64,000 nucleotides of DNA, taken from the sequence record MZ311865.1. One strand, written 5' to 3'. The stretch comes from Escherichia phage vB_EcoM_LNA2. The notes under the pieces were generated by a model that searched no databases, was not told where the DNA came from, and saw nothing but the letters and a program-made list of their open reading frames with translations. A program made the translations under genes and the position numbers. Positions within the stretch are counted from its first letter, which is position 1. Each line of letters starts with the position of its first letter. Below are positions 452 through 61,642 of this stretch, in pieces.

Positions 452-850
452 TTACACTCTATTGCTTGATGCTAACTGAAGTTTGATTTGTTCGATATCA
501 TCAGGGTTATCTACGACCGAAAATCTAATCTCTACTATAACTGTATAGTCATCATATACTGGCGTTACACTTACAGAAAGTTTGTCGATGCGCGGCTCAT
601 AGTTACGGACGGCTGCCTGGATATTACGCTCAATCGTATCAGCTGTAAGCGGTGTCATGTTCTCGAAAAGTTCATCAACCAAATCGCATCCAAATTCAGG
701 GTCGAAGGGGCGTGAGCCTTTTCTAGTTGTCACTATGCCAAGAAGACTATTTTTAATAGAACGAAGTCCTACAGAACGAGCAACGTCCTTGTTCCAATCC
801 ATACGCATTTCTGGGTCGATATCTGAATAAAGTTTATTGATATTAGACAT
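452..850 (-). CDS. 25: baseplate wedge protein gp25
   Basis: 132 aa, same length as T4 gp25 and near-identical to it as I recall; synteny with 26/51. Confidence 0.9.
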   Translation of the reverse strand: MSNINKLYSDIDPEMRMDWNKDVARSVGLRSIKNSLLGIVTTRKGSRPFDPEFGCDLVDELFENMTPLTADTIERNIQAAVRNYEPRIDKLSVSVTPVYDDYTVIVEIRFSVVDNPDDIEQIKLQLASSNRV

Positions 851-1476
851 TATAATAACTCAAAGAATTCTTTGAGGCCTCGTATTGTGTGAACGTGTGA
901 CGCCCCACATTTGGGACATTTAATAGGGGTTGCCAGATAAATTGACGGCGATACCAAAAGATTTTTAATATTGATCATGTCATCTTCTGTTATAAGGCCG
1001 TAAAGGTCGTTTATTTCTGCTTCAGTTAAATCTTCAACAGGGATGGACTCTCCATTGACAAAAACGGCCTCAATACATGAAGCAATCATTAATGCGATAT
1101 TTTTATCGTCAAATAATTTAGGTTGTCGGAACTTAATTTTAATACCACTAAACGAATACCAGGGGTCGGCCTGTTCATCCAATTGGGTGTGCAATAAATT
1201 CATATAGACTTGAAATGAATGCCCACAGGAACAATTCCAGGTGTGTTCTTGATTCACTTCACCTAACGAATGTGCCCACAGATTTACCAACAATAACTCG
1301 GCTTCTTGTTTAGTCAAGTTTTTAGCATTAGAGCAATTAGTGATAATATTGTTCACTGCGGATTCAATAGTACCGGTAGCCCGCGCACCTATGAGTCCTA
1401 AATATTCTTTTAAAGTAAAGGCTCTACAATTCACTTCTTTATCGCCTAAACGTACGGTAAACGTATATTTGTACAT
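850..1476 (-). CDS. 26: baseplate hub protein gp26
   Basis: 208 aa, T4 gp26 length; sits between 25 and 51 as in T4. Confidence 0.8.
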   Translation of the reverse strand: MYKYTFTVRLGDKEVNCRAFTLKEYLGLIGARATGTIESAVNNIITNCSNAKNLTKQEAELLLVNLWAHSLGEVNQEHTWNCSCGHSFQVYMNLLHTQLDEQADPWYSFSGIKIKFRQPKLFDDKNIALMIASCIEAVFVNGESIPVEDLTEAEINDLYGLITEDDMINIKNLLVSPSIYLATPIKCPKCGASHVHTIRGLKEFFELL

Positions 1477-10247: not shown

Positions 10248-10287
10248 AGTGTTTTCCTTTTAGTAATAATTTATATTTATGCCAAAA

Positions 10288-10303
10288 AGAGCCCGAAGGC
10301 TCT
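10288..10303 (-). terminator. UUCG-tetraloop hairpin
   Basis: AGAGCC-cgaa-GGCTCT on plus strand (UUCG loop in minus-strand RNA), just upstream of alt RBS. Confidence 0.5.
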
Positions 10304-10491
10304 TAATCCACAATCGGGAGCAAAGTACGATAAACTTCAAAATTAGGGCCTTTTTCGTACTTATCAAAATTGTCCATAAAAATATTATAGGAATCGTTAT
10401 TAGGAAAATCTAATATAATCTGAGAGCAAGAGGTGGAAACATCTCCACCATCCTTCTTAGCTACAATAACTGTTTCTAAATAAGCTTTCAT
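10303..10491 (-). CDS. hypothetical small protein
   Basis: Track ORF 10303..10512; likely start at internal Met (MKAYLETVIV...) overlapping the ligase stop. Confidence 0.35.
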   Translation of the reverse strand: MKAYLETVIVAKKDGGDVSTSCSQIILDFPNNDSYNIFMDNFDKYEKGPNFEVYRTLLPIVD

Positions 10492-12259: not shown

Positions 12260-13075
12260 TTAACAATTTATAGACCAAGTCCATTTAGACGAATCTAAAG
12301 GAAAGTTTTGAATCGTCCACCATGGCCGCATATCGGTTGGTCCTGGAGTTCGCCAGGTATACGGATTCGACGGAGCGCCAATTTGATTAGGCCATGCGCC
12401 TGGACTTGTTGCACCAGATTCTTTAAGCAAATCTGCCAATCGTTTTAAAAGGTCTTCATGATCTGAATCTGAATTATGCTTGGGTGGAACCAAACGAGAT
12501 TCAATATCATCCCACGTGTGTACACGTTGTGCAGTACGAGGAATATCATCACGTTCACCACGAGCCAACCAATAAATCGGTACATTAAGAATTTCTGCTG
12601 CATGGTCACAGTGATGAGCTAAATCGTCAACGTAACAAATCACGTTATATTTTGTTTTAGCTAGTTCAAATAATTGTTCCTTTGACGAATCGTGACCACA
12701 CATCATTACTTCAGAAAAAGCGCCTGGGAACAAAGCATTCAAATTAAATTGTCTATTCAATCGAGCATCAATTGAATCACCTAGCGCCGTCACGGCTACA
12801 AAATTATAGTCTTCTTTTAGTTTATTGATAACTCGAAGAGCATCCGAATAAGGCGCTAAGTAACGAATAAAATCAGAGCGATTATATTTTTCTATTAATT
12901 GTTTACCGAGGTTATCATCGGTATTGAATAGTTTACCAGGAGAAATAAATTTTTCGTCCTGAATCATTTTTAAAATATGTTCTAATGGAAGATTATATTT
13001 TTGGGCAAAATAAGGAAGTCCAGATTGCCAGCTTAAACATACACCATCAATATCAGTCAAAATAGTAGGCTTCAT
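12260..13075 (-). CDS. HAD-superfamily hydrolase-like protein (30.2 position)
   Basis: 271 aa; N-terminal DIDGV motif (DxDG[TV] of haloacid dehalogenase-like phosphatases). Confidence 0.6.
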   Translation of the reverse strand: MKPTILTDIDGVCLSWQSGLPYFAQKYNLPLEHILKMIQDEKFISPGKLFNTDDNLGKQLIEKYNRSDFIRYLAPYSDALRVINKLKEDYNFVAVTALGDSIDARLNRQFNLNALFPGAFSEVMMCGHDSSKEQLFELAKTKYNVICYVDDLAHHCDHAAEILNVPIYWLARGERDDIPRTAQRVHTWDDIESRLVPPKHNSDSDHEDLLKRLADLLKESGATSPGAWPNQIGAPSNPYTWRTPGPTDMRPWWTIQNFPLDSSKWTWSINC

Positions 13076-14597: not shown

Positions 14598-14609
14598 AAT
14601 TTCCTCAGT

Positions 14610-14625
14610 GGGAGCCGAAGCTCCC
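14610..14625 (-). terminator. UUCG-tetraloop hairpin
   Basis: GGGAGC-cgaa-GCTCCC on plus strand. Confidence 0.55.
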
Positions 14626-14632
14626 AGTTAAA

Positions 14633-15512: not shown

Positions 15513-15550
15513 ATCTTTTTTTAAACTTTTTCTGCCCTAAACGCACAAAA

Positions 15551-15568
15551 GGGAGACCGAAGTCTCCC
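15551..15568 (-). terminator. UUCG-tetraloop hairpin
   Basis: GGGAGAC-cgaa-GTCTCCC on plus strand, immediately 3' of the small basic ORF. Confidence 0.55.
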
Positions 15569-15573
15569 TAAAT

Positions 15574-23787: not shown

Positions 23788-24197
23788 TACTTTTTCTTAT
23801 GTTGGATATTCCAAGGCGGGTTGAACTTTTTGATAAAAAGTGGTTCTTCAAGGTCCATTGTTGCGATGGTCATTGAACCAAGTTCGTTGGTGACTGAAAG
23901 ATCAAAACATTGGCGGGCCCAGAATTCAACCTTTTTGCCTTGCATTAAGGCATCCAAAATCATAAGTGATTTTCTTGAATCTGAAGTCTGGTCTTTTCGA
24001 TTTATGGCTGTTCGATAATAGTTAATGCGTTTCTTTAAATTCTTGGTTTTACCAATATACACAAGTTCGTCATCTATAGCAATAGCGTATATGACATTTT
24101 TCTTATTAGGGACATCAACTGTTTTAATTGTTGCATCTTCTAATAGCTCCAATTCTGTATATTTAATAAAGGAATATTCGGCGGCAATATCTTTCAT
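23787..24197 (-). CDS. denA: endonuclease II (GIY-YIG family)
   Basis: 136 aa, T4 EndoII length; GIY-YIG-type motif VIYAIA...VYIGKTKNLKKRINYYR. Confidence 0.85.
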   Translation of the reverse strand: MKDIAAEYSFIKYTELELLEDATIKTVDVPNKKNVIYAIAIDDELVYIGKTKNLKKRINYYRTAINRKDQTSDSRKSLMILDALMQGKKVEFWARQCFDLSVTNELGSMTIATMDLEEPLFIKKFNPPWNIQHKKK

Positions 24198-24205
24198 AAT
24201 AAAGT

Positions 24206-24219
24206 GGGACCGAAGTCCC
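24206..24219 (-). terminator. UUCG-tetraloop hairpin between nrdB and denA
   Basis: GGGAC-cgaa-GTCCC on plus strand. Confidence 0.45.
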
Positions 24220-24223
24220 GTCC

Positions 24224-25414
24224 TTAGAAATATTTTTTGTATGAATTGATTACATTTTGGTCTACATCATTATCAATTTGTGCGACAAGATAAGAACTGA
24301 TTTCAACTTCCTGAGGAGCTGCTTGAACTAAATCGGAGTTCAGATATTCACGAATCCAAGGATATGGATGCTTGGTCGGAGCATCAGTGATTGGGCATGG
24401 CAAACCACACTGTTTCATACGAGACACAGTCAAGTAATCGACAAAAGCACACATACTCTGCGTATTGATACCTGGACATGTACCGTCTTTAAAGAGGTGT
24501 GCAGCCCATTCCTTCTCTTGTCTATTTACTTCCATAAAAATATCAACTGCTTCTTGTTCACATTCTTTAGCAATTTGAACCCACTCATCACCATCAGTAC
24601 CAGATTGAAGTTGACGGATAATGTACTGAGTACCCTTGAGGTGGAGTTGTTCGTCACGAGCAATGAACTTCATAATCTTTGCATTGCCTTCCATAATTTC
24701 CATATTTTTATGGAAGTTAAAGGTACATGCAAATGATACGTAAAAACGAATAGCTTCTAAGGCGTTGATAACATGCAAACAGAGATAAAGAGACTTCATT
24801 AAATCACGCTTAGCAGCGGCTTCTTGCTTAATAGCACGTTCTAATTGAAGGTCTGCACCAATTGACGCTTTGGCTAGTTCCGTGAATTCTTTCTGGTTTT
24901 CCCAATGGCGGGTCTTGACTAGAACATCATCGTAATATTTACCTATTGATTCAGCTCGTTTCATGATTGCTTCGTCTAATACAATCTCATCAAATACCTT
25001 AGATGGGTCTGTATAAAGATTTCGCATGATATGAGTATATGAACGAGAGTGAATAGTTTCACTGAATGTCCATGTTGCAACCCATGTATCTAATGAAGGG
25101 TCAGAAATCAGTGCCATAAGTACCGCAGATGGGGCTCTGCCTTGGATAGAATCTAATAATGATTGATACTTAAGGTTGTTTGTAAAGATGTCCTGTTGGA
25201 ACTGAGGAAGCTTATTGAACTGCGCAGAGTCCAACATCAAGTTTACCTCTTCGGGGCGCCAGAAAAATGACAATTGCTTTTCGGTCAAATCTTCAAAAAC
25301 TTTATGGCGTTGAATATCATAACGCGCAATACCAAGACCCGAACCGAAGAACATAGGTTCGTTCAAAACATCGACTTGTTGTGTGTTAAAAACTGTACTC
25401 ATTATATTTCTCAC
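24224..25414 (-). CDS. nrdB: ribonucleotide reductase small subunit (intron-less)
   Basis: 396-aa uninterrupted ORF; iron-centre/tyrosyl-radical family features; synteny nrdB-nrdA-td-frd. Confidence 0.9.
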   Translation of the reverse strand: MRNIMSTVFNTQQVDVLNEPMFFGSGLGIARYDIQRHKVFEDLTEKQLSFFWRPEEVNLMLDSAQFNKLPQFQQDIFTNNLKYQSLLDSIQGRAPSAVLMALISDPSLDTWVATWTFSETIHSRSYTHIMRNLYTDPSKVFDEIVLDEAIMKRAESIGKYYDDVLVKTRHWENQKEFTELAKASIGADLQLERAIKQEAAAKRDLMKSLYLCLHVINALEAIRFYVSFACTFNFHKNMEIMEGNAKIMKFIARDEQLHLKGTQYIIRQLQSGTDGDEWVQIAKECEQEAVDIFMEVNRQEKEWAAHLFKDGTCPGINTQSMCAFVDYLTVSRMKQCGLPCPITDAPTKHPYPWIREYLNSDLVQAAPQEVEISSYLVAQIDNDVDQNVINSYKKYF

Positions 25415-30535: not shown

Positions 30536-30553
30536 GGGAGACCGAAGTCTCCC
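30536..30553 (-). terminator. UUCG-tetraloop terminator after gene 32
   Basis: GGGAGAC-cgaa-GTCTCCC on plus strand, a few nt 3' of the gene 32 stop. Confidence 0.6.
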
Positions 30554-38872: not shown

Positions 38873-38890
38873 GGGAGACTTCGGTCTCCC
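38873..38890 (+). terminator. UUCG-tetraloop hairpin after gene 35
   Basis: GGGAGAC-ttcg-GTCTCCC followed by T-run. Confidence 0.6.
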
Positions 38891-38897
38891 ATTTTTG

Positions 38898-38905
38898 TAT
38901 AAATA
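38898..38905 (+). promoter_or_regulatory. late promoter TATAAATA for genes 36-37-38
   Basis: Exact TATAAATA about 25 nt upstream of the gene 36 start. Confidence 0.65.
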
Positions 38906-39603: not shown

Positions 39604-42600
39604 ATGGCTACATTAAAACAGATACAATTTAAAAGAAGCAAAGTAGCAGGAGTTAATCCTACTGCAGCACAATTAGCCGAAGGCGAATTAGCGATAAACT
39701 TAAAAGATCGAACTCTTTTTACTAAAGATGACCTCGGTAATATTATTAGCCTAGGCTTTGCTAAGGGCGGGGATATTAACGGTAATGTAACTCAAAATGG
39801 AGATTATTTACAGAACGGTACATATAATCTCAATGGAAACCAGTTTGTTTATGCAGGAAAATATATTGAATTTTTACCTAAAACTGCAGGCAATGGTGCT
39901 TGGGCTAACCAACATCTGAATAAAGCTCCTATCTTTACAGATTTGAGTTCAACTACTTCTGTTTCAGAATATCATCCGCTGATTAAACAACGCTATAAAG
40001 ATGGAACTTTTTCTGTTGGTACGTTAGTAAACGAAGGAAGTTTTAAAATTCATTTTATGAATGAATCTGGTGATTCGAAATATTGGACGTTTCGCCGTGA
40101 CGGTGGATTTACTGTTGATGGTGGAGGTTTAGCAGTATCAGGAGGTAGTATAACTACATCTGGAAATATTGCAGCTCTCGGAAATATTACTTCGCCTCAG
40201 ATTAATACTAAAAATATTATTTTAGACACAAAAGCATTTGGACAATACGATTCGCAATCATTAGTTCAATATGTTTATCCTGGAACAGGCGAAGAAAATG
40301 GTGTAAACTATCTTCGTAAAGTTCGCGCTAAATCAGGCGGAACTATTTACCACGAAATCGCTTCAGCTCAAACCGGTAAGAATGATGAAATTTCTTGGTG
40401 GACCGGAAATACACTTACTACTAAATTAATGGGCCTTCGTAATGATGGCGCAATGGTATTACGTCGTTCGCTTGCTATTGGCACAATTACCACTGACGAA
40501 AATACTAATAACTATGGCTCTCCTACTCCAATGGGAGAAAGATATATTGCTTTGGGCGATGCTGCCACTGGTTTAAAATACATTAAGCAGGGTGTTTATG
40601 ATTTAGTAGGTAATTGGAATTCTGTTGCTTCTATTACTCCAGATAGTTTCCGTAGTACTCGTAAAGGTATATTTGGCCGTTCCGAGGACCAAGGTGGAAC
40701 ATGGATAATGCCGGGAACCAATGCTGCTCTCTTGTCTGTTCAAACACAAGCTGATAATAACAATGCTGGAGACGGACAAACTCATATCGGGTACAACGCT
40801 GGCGGTAAAATGAACCACTATTTCCGCGGTACTGGTCAGATGAATATCAATACCCAACAAGGTATGAAAATTAACCCGGGTATTTTGAAACTGGTAACTG
40901 GCGGTGAAAGTATTAGCTTTAATGCCGCAACTGGAAGTATTAATTCTACATTAGCTTTTCGTCTTAATAAAGGCATAATTATTGATGGACCTGATAATCA
41001 GGGATTCCAGTTTAACGCCCCGACGGCTGCAGATGGTACTAGAAGTATATACTGGAACAGTGGTACTCGCGCAGGTCAAAACAAAATCCCTGTTACAGTT
41101 AAAGTGTGGGGTAATTCATTTAACGCATCTGGCGATCGTTCTCGTGAAACGGTTTTTGAAGTAGCTGATGGGCAAGGTTACCATTTTTATTCTCAACGCG
41201 TAGCTCCTGCTCCTGGTTCTACCGTCGGACCTATTCAATTTCGAGTTAATGGTGGTTTATTAACTTCAGGTAGTATTGTTACTTCTGGTTCTATTACAAC
41301 TGAATCTTCTTTAAGTGTTAATAATGGCATGTCAGTAAACGGACAAGCTAAATTCGGTGGAACAGCTGATGCATTAAGAATTTGGAATGCTGAATACGGC
41401 GCAATTTTCCGTCGTTCAGAAGCATCATTATATATTATCCCGACTCCTAAAGATGCTGGAGAATCAGGCGGTATAAGTAATCTTAGACCATTGATAATAG
41501 AACTGAACACTGGCACAGTTAAAATGTCGCATGATGTTCATTTAGGAGATTCTGGATCTGGTACAGGATTATTACAAGTAAGTAATAGTCTTAAAACTAT
41601 TAAAATGATATGTCCAGTAACTATTACTGAACGTAATGCAGCGCTTACTCTAGATTCTCCTTCATCTTCTTCTGCTAATTATTTACAGGGTTCTAAAGCT
41701 GGAACTAGAACGTGGTATGTTGGTCTTGGTGGCTCTGGAAATGATTTATCACTTTATAGTCAATCTTATGGACACGGTCTTGTTATAAGCGATAATTTCG
41801 TGGCAATCAGTAAACCTCTTAAAGTTGGAAATGCTCAATTCGGTACTGATGGTAACATTACTGGTGGTTCTGGTAATTTTGCTAACTTGAATACCACAAT
41901 AAATAACCTTAAGACGGATATTGTGTCGAGTTACCCAATTGGTGCTCCGATTCCTTGGCCTACTGATACACCTCCTGAAGGTTATGCCATAATGGAAGGT
42001 CAAACATTTGATGCTGGCTTGTATCCTAAGTTAGCTGCGGTGTATCCTTCCGGCACTCTGCCTGATATGCGTGGTCAAACTATCAAGGGTAAACCATCTG
42101 GGCGTGCTGTATTAAGTACAGAAGCGGACGGCGTTAAGTCACATAGCCATAGTGCAAGTGCATCAAGCACAGATTTGGGTACTAAAACTACGTCAAGCTT
42201 TGATTATGGTACTAAGACGACAAGTAGCTTCGACTATGGTACTAAGACCAGTAATACCACTGGTAACCATAACCATACCGTGAGTGGTAATACTGGTTCC
42301 GCTGGTGCGCACCAACACGCGCGTTCAGGTCCTCAGGTACAAGGCGGCATACCCACTAGCGTATTCTATGATGGATACAATAGTGCTGGTCCAAACGGCA
42401 ACGCTAAATTCACTGCAACCGTGAGCGGTGCTACTGCATCGTCGAATATGGCCAAAACTTCTTCAGACGGCGCCCACACCCATAGTTGGTCAGGAACTAC
42501 TAGCGCTACTGGTAACCATGCTCATACTGTGGGTATTGGTGCTCATACCCATTCGGTAGGTATTGGTGCCCACTCTCATTCGGTAGCGATTGGTTCTCAT

Positions 42601-42687
42601 GGCCATACTATCACTGTAAATAGTACAGGTAATACAGAAAACACGGTTAAAAACGTTGCTTTTAACTATATCGTTCGTTTAGCATAA
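39604..42687 (+). CDS. 37: long tail fibre distal subunit gp37 (receptor-binding)
   Basis: 1027 aa (T4 gp37 1026 aa); C-terminal His-box repeats (GNHNH, GAHTHS, GAHSHS, GSHGH) typical of the T4-type fibre tip. Confidence 0.9.
42171..42260 (+). repeat. 30-nt tandem repeat x3 inside gene 37 ([10 protein letters not shown] / [10 protein letters not shown] / [10 protein letters not shown])
   Basis: Three consecutive imperfect 30-nt units read directly in the sequence. Confidence 0.7.
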
Positions 42688-42717
42688 GGAGAAGGGACTT
42701 CGGTCCCTTTTTATAAC
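42686..42717 (+). promoter_or_regulatory. gene 38 split ribosome-binding site with intervening UUCG hairpin
   Basis: SD AAGGAG at 42686-42691, hairpin GGGAC-ttcg-GTCCC, then ATG at 42718; the stem-loop shortens the effective SD-AUG spacing. Confidence 0.6.
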
Positions 42718-43269
42718 ATGAAACTCTATCATTATTATTTTGACACTAAAGAATTTTACAAAGAAGAAAATTATAAACCATTAAAAGGCGTAGGATTTCC
42801 GGCTCATTCGACACCAAAAAAACCTTTAGACCCTAAAGAAGGCTATGCTGTTATATTTGATGAACGCGAACAAGAATGGGTATATGTTGAAGACCATCGC
42901 GGAAAAACAGTATGGACTTATGATAAGCAAAAAATTGTTATTGACACCCCAGGTGCTCTTCAAAATGTTACTACAGAAGAACCTGGTGAATTTGACATTT
43001 GGACCGGTGACGGGTGGAAGGAAGATGAAGCATATAAACGCGTAGTTCAACGTGATAAGAAAATTCATGAACTCTATAAATTATTCAGTGTTTTAAGTTC
43101 TCTTATTGACGCAGAGGTTGCTAATAGAGAAGAAAAACGAAAATTTAAAGAGCTCAAAAAATTCTTTGCTCTTTTAGAAAAACATGAACATCTTGGCGGC
43201 GAATTCCCTAAATTCCCTGACCTTGAAAACAAATCTATTATCAAAGCGATTATAAATATCTTTAAGTAA
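42718..43269 (+). CDS. 38: tail fibre assembly chaperone gp38 (T4 type)
   Basis: 183 aa, T4 gp38 length; N-terminus MKLYHYYFDTKEFYKEENYKP matches T4-type gp38 as I recall. Confidence 0.85.
   Translation: MKLYHYYFDTKEFYKEENYKPLKGVGFPAHSTPKKPLDPKEGYAVIFDEREQEWVYVEDHRGKTVWTYDKQKIVIDTPGALQNVTTEEPGEFDIWTGDGWKEDEAYKRVVQRDKKIHELYKLFSVLSSLIDAEVANREEKRKFKELKKFFALLEKHEHLGGEFPKFPDLENKSIIKAIINIFK
43251..43258 (+). promoter_or_regulatory. late promoter TATAAATA for holin t (inside 3' end of gene 38)
   Basis: Exact TATAAATA about 20 nt upstream of the t start. Confidence 0.55.
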
Positions 43270-43278
43270 GGAGGTATT

Positions 43279-43938
43279 ATGGCAACACCAAAAGTGTCAT
43301 TTTCGCCTAGTGATATTCTATTTGGGTTGCTAGATCGTATTTTCAAAGATAACGCTACTGGAAAGGTTTTAATGTCCCGAGTAGCGGTAATTATTCTTTT
43401 GTTCCTAATGGCACTAATATGGTACAAAGGAAGTATTTTGCTGGATTATTATGTAAGAGCTAAGTATGATACTTATACTGAAATAATCCAAAAAGAACGA
43501 GCTTTACGTTTTGAATCTGCGGCTCTAGAACAACTGCAAATAGTTCATATCTCATCTGGTGCAGATTTTAGTGCTGTGTATTCTTTCAGACCTAAAAACT
43601 TAAATTATTTTGTCGACCTTATAGCTTATGAAGGCAAACTACCTAGCACAATTTCTGAAAAGTCCCTTGGTGGATTCCCGGTGGATAAAACGGCCAATGA
43701 ATATATAATTCATTTAAGTGGCCGTCATTTCTCGTCTAAATCAGAATTTGCATTTTTGCCTACAAAATCTAAGACTGCCGAACTTTCTTATATGTATAGT
43801 TGTCCATACTTTAATTTGGATAACATCTATGCTGGAACTGTGACGATGTATTGGTATAAGGGGAATAATATACTTGAGGAAGATCGCTTAGCGGCTATAT
43901 GCAACCAAGCGGTCCGAATACTAGGAAGGGCTAAATAA
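43279..43938 (+). CDS. t: holin T
   Basis: 219 aa (T4 T 218 aa); single N-terminal TM segment; C-terminal conserved block ...SCPYFNLDNIYAGT.TMYWY... Confidence 0.9.
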   Translation: MATPKVSFSPSDILFGLLDRIFKDNATGKVLMSRVAVIILLFLMALIWYKGSILLDYYVRAKYDTYTEIIQKERALRFESAALEQLQIVHISSGADFSAVYSFRPKNLNYFVDLIAYEGKLPSTISEKSLGGFPVDKTANEYIIHLSGRHFSSKSEFAFLPTKSKTAELSYMYSCPYFNLDNIYAGTVTMYWYKGNNILEEDRLAAICNQAVRILGRAK

Positions 43939-47093: not shown

Positions 47094-47118
47094 TGTTTTG
47101 TGAGAAAAATGCACAAAA

Positions 47119-47134
47119 GGGAGCCGAAGCTCCC
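47119..47134 (-). terminator. UUCG-tetraloop hairpin after gene 52
   Basis: GGGAGC-cgaa-GCTCCC on plus strand. Confidence 0.55.
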
Positions 47135-47210
47135 TAATCATGTTTGTCCAACCAATACAGCCAAATCACTAGTGCAGCTATTGCACCGAGAAATCCTAAG
47201 GCTAGGGCAC

Positions 47211-48540: not shown

Positions 48541-48681
48541 TCACCATATTAATGAACGAATATCCATTATAACATCTGAAATGAAAAGCACTACTTGGAT
48601 TAGTCCAAACATCACACCGTAGTACAGAACCGTAAGCAACAACAAGAGCCCGAAGGCTCCTGCTAAAATTTTCTTAATCAT
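48541..48681 (-). CDS. small hydrophobic membrane peptide, 46 aa (missed by ORF track; T4 ac position)
   Basis: Hand translation: MIKKILAGAFGLLLLLTVLYYGVMFGLIQVVLFISDVIMDIRSLIW; TAATG overlap with the upstream peptide ORF. Confidence 0.45.
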   Translation of the reverse strand: MIKKILAGAFGLLLLLTVLYYGVMFGLIQVVLFISDVIMDIRSLIW

Positions 48682-50986: not shown

Positions 50987-51002
50987 GGGGACCGAAGTCC
51001 CC
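50987..51002 (-). terminator. UUCG-tetraloop hairpin after rIIB
   Basis: GGGGAC-cgaa-GTCCCC on plus strand. Confidence 0.55.
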
Positions 51003-55610: not shown

Positions 55611-55628
55611 AAGCTCCCGAAGGAGCTT
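55611..55628 (-). terminator. UUCG-tetraloop hairpin after gene 39
   Basis: AAGCTCC-cgaa-GGAGCTT on plus strand, overlapping the gene 39 stop. Confidence 0.5.
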
Positions 55629-57444: not shown

Positions 57445-57495
57445 GTTGTCTCCTCGTTATGAAGGTATTCTATCATCCGAAATCTAAAGCAAAAA

Positions 57496-57507
57496 GGGCC
57501 GAAGCCC
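57496..57507 (-). terminator. short UUCG-tetraloop hairpin upstream of gene 39
   Basis: GGGC-cgaa-GCCC on plus strand. Confidence 0.4.
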
Positions 57508-57951
57508 TTATTTAAATTTAATTTTCTGAAGTGCATCAATTGCAGCTAAACGCCCTTGTTCACTTTTAACTGTAATGACCACATCGCCTGATACGATCAC
57601 CGAACCATCAACAAATTCTATAGAGCCTTTTTTGAAATCGACAGCTGTATCTGGTTCCGGAACTTCTTCAAAGAATTTAAATTCTGCACCATAAATCAGA
57701 ATATCACCTTGCATACTAATGATTGTACGTCTAGGTCCATCGGTTTCAGCGGCAATCATTGAAACACCATAACCAATCATCTCTTCTACAATAAAATCTC
57801 TTGATAATAAAACTGTATGCAGAGTAGTGTTAAGACGTTTACCAGTTGTATTAAGAATTCTCAAGAAATTATCTTCTTGACCTTTGATAATACGATATTT
57901 CTTACCAACTTCAAAACCTTTAAAACCTTTAAAAGCCGTATTAAAAGCCAT
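57508..57951 (-). CDS. hypothetical protein
   Basis: 147-aa ORF, TAATTATG junction with the upstream zinc-ribbon ORF. Confidence 0.45.
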   Translation of the reverse strand: MAFNTAFKGFKGFEVGKKYRIIKGQEDNFLRILNTTGKRLNTTLHTVLLSRDFIVEEMIGYGVSMIAAETDGPRRTIISMQGDILIYGAEFKFFEEVPEPDTAVDFKKGSIEFVDGSVIVSGDVVITVKSEQGRLAAIDALQKIKFK

Positions 57952-60964: not shown

Positions 60965-61642
60965 TTATCGCTGTTTTACACTTAACGGGTCAGGATTCTC
61001 AGGGACATCTTCAAGGCCAAGCGCATAACGCTGAGCATATTTTAACATCAAAATATCTTTAGCACAATCATGAATACTATCATGGGCAACGAATCCTTTT
61101 AGCGTACCCATCGGTAATGGACACATACTTAATCCTCGTGTCAACGAGTAAGCTTCGATTGCTGTACGAATATCACGTTGAGCCCAGAATTTAACCGGTT
61201 CTAATTTATCAGTATCAATATCTGGTTCAAGAACACCTTCATCACGATAGAGGTCACGAATCAAATCGACCAAGATTGGGAAGTCAAAGCTCATACCACG
61301 GCACCACATCTGTGATTTCCATTGGTCAACTTTATTAGCTCGACAATAATCTAAAAAGATTTTAATGCCTTCAAGCGTAGTGACATCGTCTTCAGACGGA
61401 GCCAAGTTTTTACGCGCTTCAGCAGATTGTTCTTTCCACCATTTCATAGTGGATTTAGCGAAAACTCGCTTCCCTTTCTGAGAAGCTAAATTAAATTTAA
61501 TTCGCTTACCTCGTTGAACAAGGTCTTCAAATGATTCAACAACTTCTGGGTCGGAATTATATGCAATAACCGCAAGGTCAATAACAGCCGCTTTTGATGT
61601 ATTGCCGAATGTTTCAAAATCTATAATAACATCAGTGCTCAT
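60965..61642 (-). CDS. dexA: exonuclease A (DEDD/DnaQ-like 3'-5' exonuclease)
   Basis: 225 aa (T4 DexA 227 aa); N-terminal IIDFETFG Exo I motif; adjacent to dda. Confidence 0.8.
   Translation of the reverse strand: MSTDVIIDFETFGNTSKAAVIDLAVIAYNSDPEVVESFEDLVQRGKRIKFNLASQKGKRVFAKSTMKWWKEQSAEARKNLAPSEDDVTTLEGIKIFLDYCRANKVDQWKSQMWCRGMSFDFPILVDLIRDLYRDEGVLEPDIDTDKLEPVKFWAQRDIRTAIEAYSLTRGLSMCPLPMGTLKGFVAHDSIHDCAKDILMLKYAQRYALGLEDVPENPDPLSVKQR

Follow-up and report, generated by a model that had tools for sequence, protein, structure and literature searches.

A probable split ribosome-binding site ahead of gene 38 in the phage vB_EcoM_LNA2, homologous to that of T4, and a similar layout at the nrdB|denA junction

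In bacteriophage T4, the extended distance between the Shine-Dalgarno (SD) sequence and the AUG of genes 38 and 25 is brought to a functional length by an intervening structure (Uzan and Miller, PMC3014915), the spacing being shortened in gene 38 from 22 nt to 5 nt and in gene 25 from 27 nt to 11 nt (PMC3014915, citing Nivinskas et al. 1999). Another paper credits Gold 1988 with the gene 38 case and Nivinskas 1999 with the gene 25 case, describes the aid of these hairpins to initiation as "suggested" and terms such sites non-contiguous or split (PMC7297116). The mutational and probing evidence that is cited concerns gene 25 (PMC7297116, PMC3014915; Malys and Nivinskas 2009 in PMC3014915), and this gene in T4, unlike gene 38, can thus be said to have direct evidence of both kinds. 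In this study, we analysed a stretch of 64,000 nucleotides of Escherichia phage vB_EcoM_LNA2 (MZ311865.1), which is referred to below as the window, and in which the start of gene 38 was found to be a close homologue of the T4 gene 38 split ribosome-binding site (RBS); as such, the element is already known and is not new. The preliminary description of this DNA had recognised the arrangement as that of T4 gene 38 and as conserved, which agrees well with the homologous T4 sequence and with both of the papers (PMC3014915, PMC7297116).

Anatomy of the gene 37|38 junction and its likeness to T4

Based on the domain matches of the flanking ORFs, the locus corresponds to genes 36-37-38-t of a T4-like phage, the order being gene 37 (gp37_trimer, Collar), gene 38 and the T holin gene (Table 1). 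The naming of gene 38 in the preliminary description proved to be correct, as gp38 matched Caudo_TAP (PF02413) and phrog_105 "tail fiber assembly", the latter from residue 1, and as the gene lies between gp37 and the T holin. The N-terminus of the protein is MKLYHYYFDT compared with MKIYHYYFDT in T4, and the start at 42718 is authenticated by the homology that begins at residue 1. The distance between the end of the SD and this ATG, which had been given as about 26 nt, is 26 nt when read directly from the coordinates and is exact to the base, i.e., the SD is placed more than about 15 nt upstream of an authentic start. A stable hairpin lies wholly between the SD and the AUG, and looping it out gives a workable spacing: subtracting the 14-nt hairpin with the 5-bp stem (GGGAC-UUCG-GUCCC) leaves the 12 nt that had been claimed, while looping out the 7-bp stem leaves 8 nt. 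With the 5-bp core only, the 12 nt are at the long end of workable spacing. An alternative in-frame start with a conventionally spaced SD, which the preliminary description had named as an observation that would speak against its reading, was looked for and is absent. There is no ATG, GTG or TTG among the 10 in-frame codons from the gene 37 TAA to the gene 38 ATG (GGA GAA GGG ACT TCG GTC CCT TTT TAT AAC), and the spacer UUUUUAUAAC contains no SD-like motif, which leaves gene 38 with no proximal SD.

Table 1. Features of the gene 37|38 junction and of comparable sites (positions are those of the window unless a segment is named)
Feature	Position	Strand	Remarks
TTCG hairpin	38873-38890	+	precedes the gene 36 late promoter
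Late-promoter consensus TATAAATA ahead of gene 36	38898..38905	+	nearest perfect one upstream of gene 38
Gene 37, long tail fibre distal subunit, 1027 aa	39604..42687	+	ORF; Pfam gp37_trimer, Collar
Gene 37 stop TAA	42685-42687	+	shares bases with the gene 38 SD
Gene 38 Shine-Dalgarno AAGGAG	42686-42691	+	26 nt upstream of the ATG
AA between the SD and the 5-bp stem of the gene 38 hairpin	after 42691, before 42694	+	
Gene 38 hairpin, core: GGGAC (42694-98), TTCG (42699-702), GTCCC (42703-07)	42694-42707	+	5 bp
Gene 38 hairpin AAGGGAC-UUCG-GUCCCUU	42692..42709	+	7 bp including two A-U pairs; folding
Gene 38 hairpin, MFE form	42689-42712	+	folding
U/A-rich spacer from hairpin to start, DNA TTTTTATAAC, RNA UUUUUAUAAC	42708..42717	+	doubles as a terminator-like U-tract
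Gene 38, T4-type tail-fibre assembly chaperone, 183 aa	42718..43269	+	start codon 42718-42720
Late promoter TATAAATA for t, inside the gene 38 3' end	43251..43258	+	annotated likewise in phage SA79RD
T holin gene t	43279..43938	+	3' of gene 38
Gene 25 split RBS: GAGG 881-878, CTCAAAG-AATT-CTTTGAG 876-859, UUAUUAUA, ATG 850-848	848-881	-	
nrdB|denA junction: TAA 24226-24, AAGGA 24225-21, GGGAC-TTCG-GTCCC 24219-06, ACTTTATT, ATG 24197-95	24195-24226	-	
Remaining starts of the SD-hairpin-start scan	47233	+	
Remaining starts of the SD-hairpin-start scan	53479, 25117, 10190	-	
TTCG hairpins	57494-57509, 55611-55628, 50987-51002, 48646-48659, 47118-47135	-	
TTCG hairpins	30536-30553, 15550-15569, 14609-14626, 12284-12299, 10287-10304	-	12284-12299 A/T-rich
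T2 hairpin-SD stretch	segment 4050-4086		
RB69, VR5, Melville and Miller hairpin-SD stretches	upstream of segment position 301		

The T4 junction (KJ477684) reads, as DNA, TAAGGAGA-GGGGC-TTCG-GCCCC-TTCTAAAT-ATG, with UUCUAAAU being the RNA form of its spacer. The gene and the junction are homologous in both phages and the flanking coding sequence aligns; the stop-overlapping UAAGGAG, the 5-bp GC stem, the UUCG loop, the short U/A-rich spacer and the AUG are common to them. However, stem pair 4 is A-U in the window and G-C in T4, and the stem in the window is preceded by one additional A and followed by two additional nucleotides, with a raw spacing of 26 nt compared with the 23 nt that we counted for T4 (22 nt in the review). 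Moreover, the U5 run of the window permits a 10-bp helix, whereas T4 has UUCU, and the host genome is that of an RB69-like Mosigvirus and not T4.

We consider it likely that the gene 38 initiation region is a split (non-contiguous) RBS that is homologous to the one in T4. The mechanism rests on the literature on T4 genes 38 and 25, since the function at this locus is assigned by homology. Gene 38 would be read from a late 36-37-38 mRNA, and a 30S subunit would pair with the AAGGAG that overlaps the gene 37 stop, while the 14-18 nt between the SD and the AUG would fold as a compact hairpin with a tetraloop and would in this way be looped out of the mRNA track. With the 7-bp stem, the distance seen by the ribosome would be about 8 nt, and with the 5-bp stem 12 nt, in place of the raw 26 nt, and initiation would take place at the AUG at 42718. 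By analogy with T4, we infer that the hairpin is formed on the ribosome and that gp38 synthesis depends on it. The element would illustrate how a ribosome uses a distant SD once a compact hairpin has been looped out.

Genes 37 and 38 share a reading frame, and the 30-nt gap between them contains no stop (27 nt in T4, likewise in frame). A gp37-gp38 read-through fusion was considered and rejected because the frame is not kept among the relatives: the gap in TH58 has an in-frame TAG and the gap in GRNsp7 is 26 nt long. The shared frame is probably a coincidence.

Conservation and folding of the gene 38 hairpin

The junctions from 31 loci of Tequatrovirus, Mosigvirus and Gaprivervirus phages were reduced to 11 distinct variants, which came mainly from GenBank phage records, as the scans of IMG/VR and of metagenomes gave just 2 and 4 contigs. 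The AAGGAGA motif was invariant in 11/11 of the distinct 37|38 variants, the GGAG was 22-26 nt from the ATG and a proximal SD was absent across them. All of the stem cells (100%) were paired in the 11 variants, and stem pair 4 was G-C in seven, G-U in one (Mizar, ESh33) and A-U in three, including the window. The loop was found as UUCG, UUCU (GADS24, SA79RD), UUUG (AV122) or GUUA (TH58), and the 3' spacer differed in both sequence and length (UUCUAAAU, UUUUGAAU, UUUUAAU in GRNsp7 and UUUAAUU in TH58). In the window type, the extra A before the stem, when compared with T4, pairs with an extra U after it, which keeps the looped-out spacing within 6-8 nt for the longest stems and 8-12 nt for the 5-bp core. 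This pattern fits selection on the SD, the stem and the effective spacing. The covariation statistics are weak because the relatives are close and a single pair varies among the 11 closely related variants, with 15 of the 500 shuffles reaching the observed score; the tool that was used also warns that related sequences may reach such a score without any structure.

In Salmonella phage Lv5cm (MZ150757, segment 294-420), a 77-nt tandem duplication was observed that spans the stretch between the hairpin and codon 19 of gene 38, both included. An SD is present in the first copy, which is closed by an in-frame TAG, while the second, which carries the annotated gene 38 start, has the hairpin and no SD. 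This duplication could be real or could be an assembly artefact.

The folding energy, which had been proposed earlier as a check on the hairpin, was calculated to be -7.5 kcal/mol for the 5-bp hairpin alone and -10.0 kcal/mol for the 7-bp AAGGGAC/GUCCCUU form (z = -3.1 against shuffles), in line with a stable structure. In both the 71-nt and the 111-nt contexts, the minimum free energy (MFE) structure was a 10-bp helix, GAGAAGGGAC/GUCCCUUUUU, at -13.2 kcal/mol, in which GAG, the last three bases of the SD, is also paired with the U-run via G-U and A-U pairs. This extension is absent from the preliminary description. As the predicted helix buries the GAG, it was counted as evidence against the split RBS. 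However, the three extra pairs into the SD are weak, optional and predicted, being worth about 3 kcal/mol, compared with -7.2 to -9.0 kcal/mol for the pairing between the SD and the 3' end of the 16S rRNA, and a 30S subunit should therefore displace them. A search of positions 42000-43500 with the Rfam covariance models gave only chance-level matches (E > 1) that were far under the gathering scores.

The genomic background of the junction differs from that of T4. Mosigvirus mar005p1, Mizar and EP02SG are among the best matches over 20 kb (about 95% identity), RB69 shares 97.8% identity with the window in the nrdB-denA region, and the closest gp38 proteins (99.5%) belong to phages that are classified as Mosigvirus. 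T4 and the window share about 78-80% DNA identity at this locus and 66.5% identity in the gp38 protein, and RB69 itself has an unrelated, T2-type gene 38. The combination of an RB69-like backbone with a T4-type gene 38 thus indicates that a T4-type fibre module is carried by an RB69-like Mosigvirus and that the junction travels with the module. Judging from these identities, the region of the gene 37 C-terminus and gene 38 (39604-43269) looks like a tail-fibre module that was exchanged across genera. For the window, this merely confirms that a known T4 feature moves with the T4-type gene 37/38 fibre module. The same module, together with its junction, is also present in Gaprivervirus phages.

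The same layout at gene 25 and at the nrdB|denA junction

The window was scanned for an SD-like motif that is followed by a hairpin and, after 3-13 nt, by the start of an ORF with 50 or more aa. Eight starts were found, including those of gene 38, gene 25 and denA; the start at 61447 on the minus strand was discarded, since its ATG is internal to a 225-aa exonuclease ORF, and the remaining ones are given in Table 1. Since the T4 counterpart has been experimentally validated, the gene 25 site serves as the positive control of the scan. The ORF encodes a baseplate wedge protein of 132 aa, and at 27 nt, the raw SD-AUG distance equals the one published for T4. The split RBS of T4 gene 25, with its SD, looped-out hairpin and AUG, is present in this window too. 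It differs from the gene 38 site in that its sequence is unrelated and its stem consists of seven A/U-rich base pairs with an AAUU loop, as well as in that the upstream stop overlaps the start codon and not the SD, the gene 26 stop TAA (852-850) overlapping the gene 25 ATG.

The denA gene encodes the 136-aa GIY-YIG endonuclease II, and the NrdB and GIY-YIG domains flank the junction. Its hairpin is identical to the one at gene 38 (GGGAC-UUCG-GUCCC) and is followed by 8 nt before the ATG. The T4 denA junction has the same layout with another hairpin, TAAGGAGT-GGGCC-GCAA-GGCCC-ATTTTATT-ATG. A comparison of 13 distinct variants from T4-like contigs revealed an unchanging layout but a variable stem, with five stems (GGGAC/GUCCC, GGGCC/GGCCC, GGGGC/GCCCC, GGGAG/CUCCC and AGGGC/GCCCU) and the loops UUCG, GCAA, GUAA and CUUGA being found. 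The raw spacing was 22-26 nt, and it was 7-10 nt in most of the variants when the hairpin was looped out. On the strength of this layout, nrdB|denA could represent another split RBS, the third and a widely conserved one; no account of a split layout at denA was found in the literature that was searched, with the older T4 literature lying outside the search. It is tentatively proposed, with less confidence than the reading of gene 38 itself, that a stop-overlapping SD, a looped-out GC hairpin, 6-10 nt and an AUG might form a recurrent modular design of T-even junctions. A general intercistronic hairpin, acting as a protector of 3' ends or as a leaky terminator, would be reused in it as an RBS spacer, possibly for termination-reinitiation, and nrdB|denA would be the third and much more widely conserved member.

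Termination-reinitiation could also be considered as an explanation of the gene 38 site that takes the place of de novo initiation. Ribosomes that finish gene 37 would translate gene 38, with the stop-overlapping SD retaining the 30S or the 70S and the refolding hairpin bringing closer the AUG, which lies 31 nt downstream, and the binding of new 30S subunits would be minor. The overlap of the UAA with AAGGAG at gene 38 is what such a route would use, and stops are similarly placed elsewhere: the stop overlaps an SD-like motif in 13/13 of the denA junction variants, and it overlaps the start codon at the gene 26-25 junction. Judging by the size of the ribosome footprint, a terminating ribosome would melt the hairpin, which starts 7 nt past the stop. 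However, the literature treats these sites as ordinary SD-dependent initiation that is aided by structure (PMC3014915, PMC7297116), and we find it unlikely that reinitiation is the main route to gp38.

UUCG hairpins, T2-type junctions and the role of the hairpin in the transcript

Hairpins with C(UUCG)G in the intercistronic regions of T4 were reportedly described by Tuerk et al. in 1988. The window contains 12 TTCG-loop hairpins whose stems have 5 bp or more (C...G closes the loop in 11), while the dinucleotide shuffles (n = 200) contained 0.7 ± 0.8 such hairpins and at most three. Given this excess and an arrangement that was kept in T4 and in every relative examined, the gene 38 hairpin is not due to chance. 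The hairpins share the C-UUCG-G closure, the intercistronic position and the strong over-representation with the T4 class; most members of that class, in contrast to the gene 38 hairpin, precede the SD of the next gene or act as terminator-like ends. Nearly all of the copies in the window are located just past stop codons and most of them precede T-runs, which makes them terminator-like, and only the gene 38 and denA copies lie between an SD and its AUG. The stems of several of these hairpins were near-identical, and GGGAGAC/GTCTCCC was observed three times.

The gene 38 junctions of the T2 type were compared in T2, RB69, VR5, Melville and Miller, which represent five genera. In 5/5 of them, a GC-rich tetraloop hairpin (often GGGGC-UUCG-GCCCC) directly follows the gene 37 stop, and the SD (GGAGG, AAGGA or AGAGG) comes after the hairpin at 5-7 nt from the ATG, as in RB69, TAATAAGA-GGGGC-TTCG-GCCCC-TT-GGAGG-TGTAT-ATG. 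Unlike the junction in the window, these have a contiguous RBS, and gene 38 in these phages is an unrelated adhesin. The comparison of the two types indicates that a border hairpin is a general feature of the 37|38 junction, whereas the layout with the SD upstream is restricted to the T4 type. Because the phages with the T2-type gene 38 keep a similar hairpin with a normal SD after it, the hairpin is not solely a bridge between the SD and the AUG. The general border hairpin and the U5 run that follows it here suggest a second role in protecting the gene 37 3' end or in leaky termination. A second role of the kind that is common to similar intercistronic hairpins, either as a 3'-end protector or as a partial terminator after gene 37, is very probable. 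Our results therefore suggest that the textbook view, in which the hairpin exists in order to shorten the spacing, is incomplete, since the 37|38 hairpin is found whatever the position of the SD and the same design is present at denA.

As for transcription, no perfect TATAAATA was found on the plus strand between 38898 and 43251, and the nearest perfect late promoter at 38898 implies a late 36-37-38 transcript. A late promoter of its own for gene 38 was considered and rejected, as the only candidate was TGTAAATA at 42615, which has one mismatch, lies within the conserved gp37 coding sequence and is unlikely to be a promoter. Without its own late promoter, gene 38 would be read through the hairpin, which sets a limit on the efficiency of any terminator at this site. 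Among the features that are expected of a terminator, the GC-rich stem with a U-tract is present (GGGAC-UUCG-GUCCC followed by UUUUUAU), the U-tract is not conserved (T4-type UUCUAAAU, UUUAAUU in TH58 and UUUUAAU in GRNsp7), and the downstream gene 38 lacks a promoter of its own. The scan with the consensus terminator did not call the gene 38 hairpin, which it possibly missed since the extension of the stem absorbs the Ts. Given that the U-tract is not conserved in the T4-type junctions, termination is unlikely to be a conserved function.

These observations bear on whether the main function of the hairpin could be that of a general element between cistrons, which at the 3' end of gene 37 would block 3' exonucleases and/or serve as a leaky intrinsic terminator that lowers the transcription of gene 38 relative to that of gene 37, with the position of the SD being a tolerated by-product. 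As the main function, this appears improbable, even though it is compatible with a split RBS as a dual function. The excess of TTCG-loop hairpins past stop codons and ahead of T-runs, the stem that runs into UUUUUAU, the hairpins that precede a conventional SD in T2, RB69, VR5, Melville and Miller, and the annotation of the analogous nrdB|denA hairpin in phage SV76 as a terminator all favour such a role. However, efficient termination is excluded by the lack of a perfect late promoter for gene 38, and the site was not called by the consensus scan. Moreover, the SD, the stem and the looped-out spacing were kept where the U-tract was not, and an intercistronic element alone does not account for an invariant GGAG at a distance of 22-26 nt in junctions that lack a proximal SD. 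That the SD is irrelevant, with S1-dependent initiation proceeding via the U/A-rich tract (the UUUUUAUAAC stretch is unstructured and AU-rich) and AAGGAG being kept merely because it abuts the gene 37 stop, is highly improbable, as the GGAG, although not part of the gene 37 coding sequence, is invariant in the 11 variants while the neighbouring loop and spacer vary, and as the SD-hairpin-AUG geometry recurs at gene 25, where it is validated in T4, and at denA.

The split RBS is also of importance for genome annotation, as such sites are missed by the standard gene-finding and RBS-annotation pipelines, for which the records of Mizar and SV76 are examples. In the Mizar record, the "ribosome_binding_site" of gene 38 consists of three bases in the 3' arm of the hairpin (segment 737-739). 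Similarly, the SV76 record (segment 325-347) has the denA hairpin marked as a terminator and places the RBS at three bases in its 3' arm.
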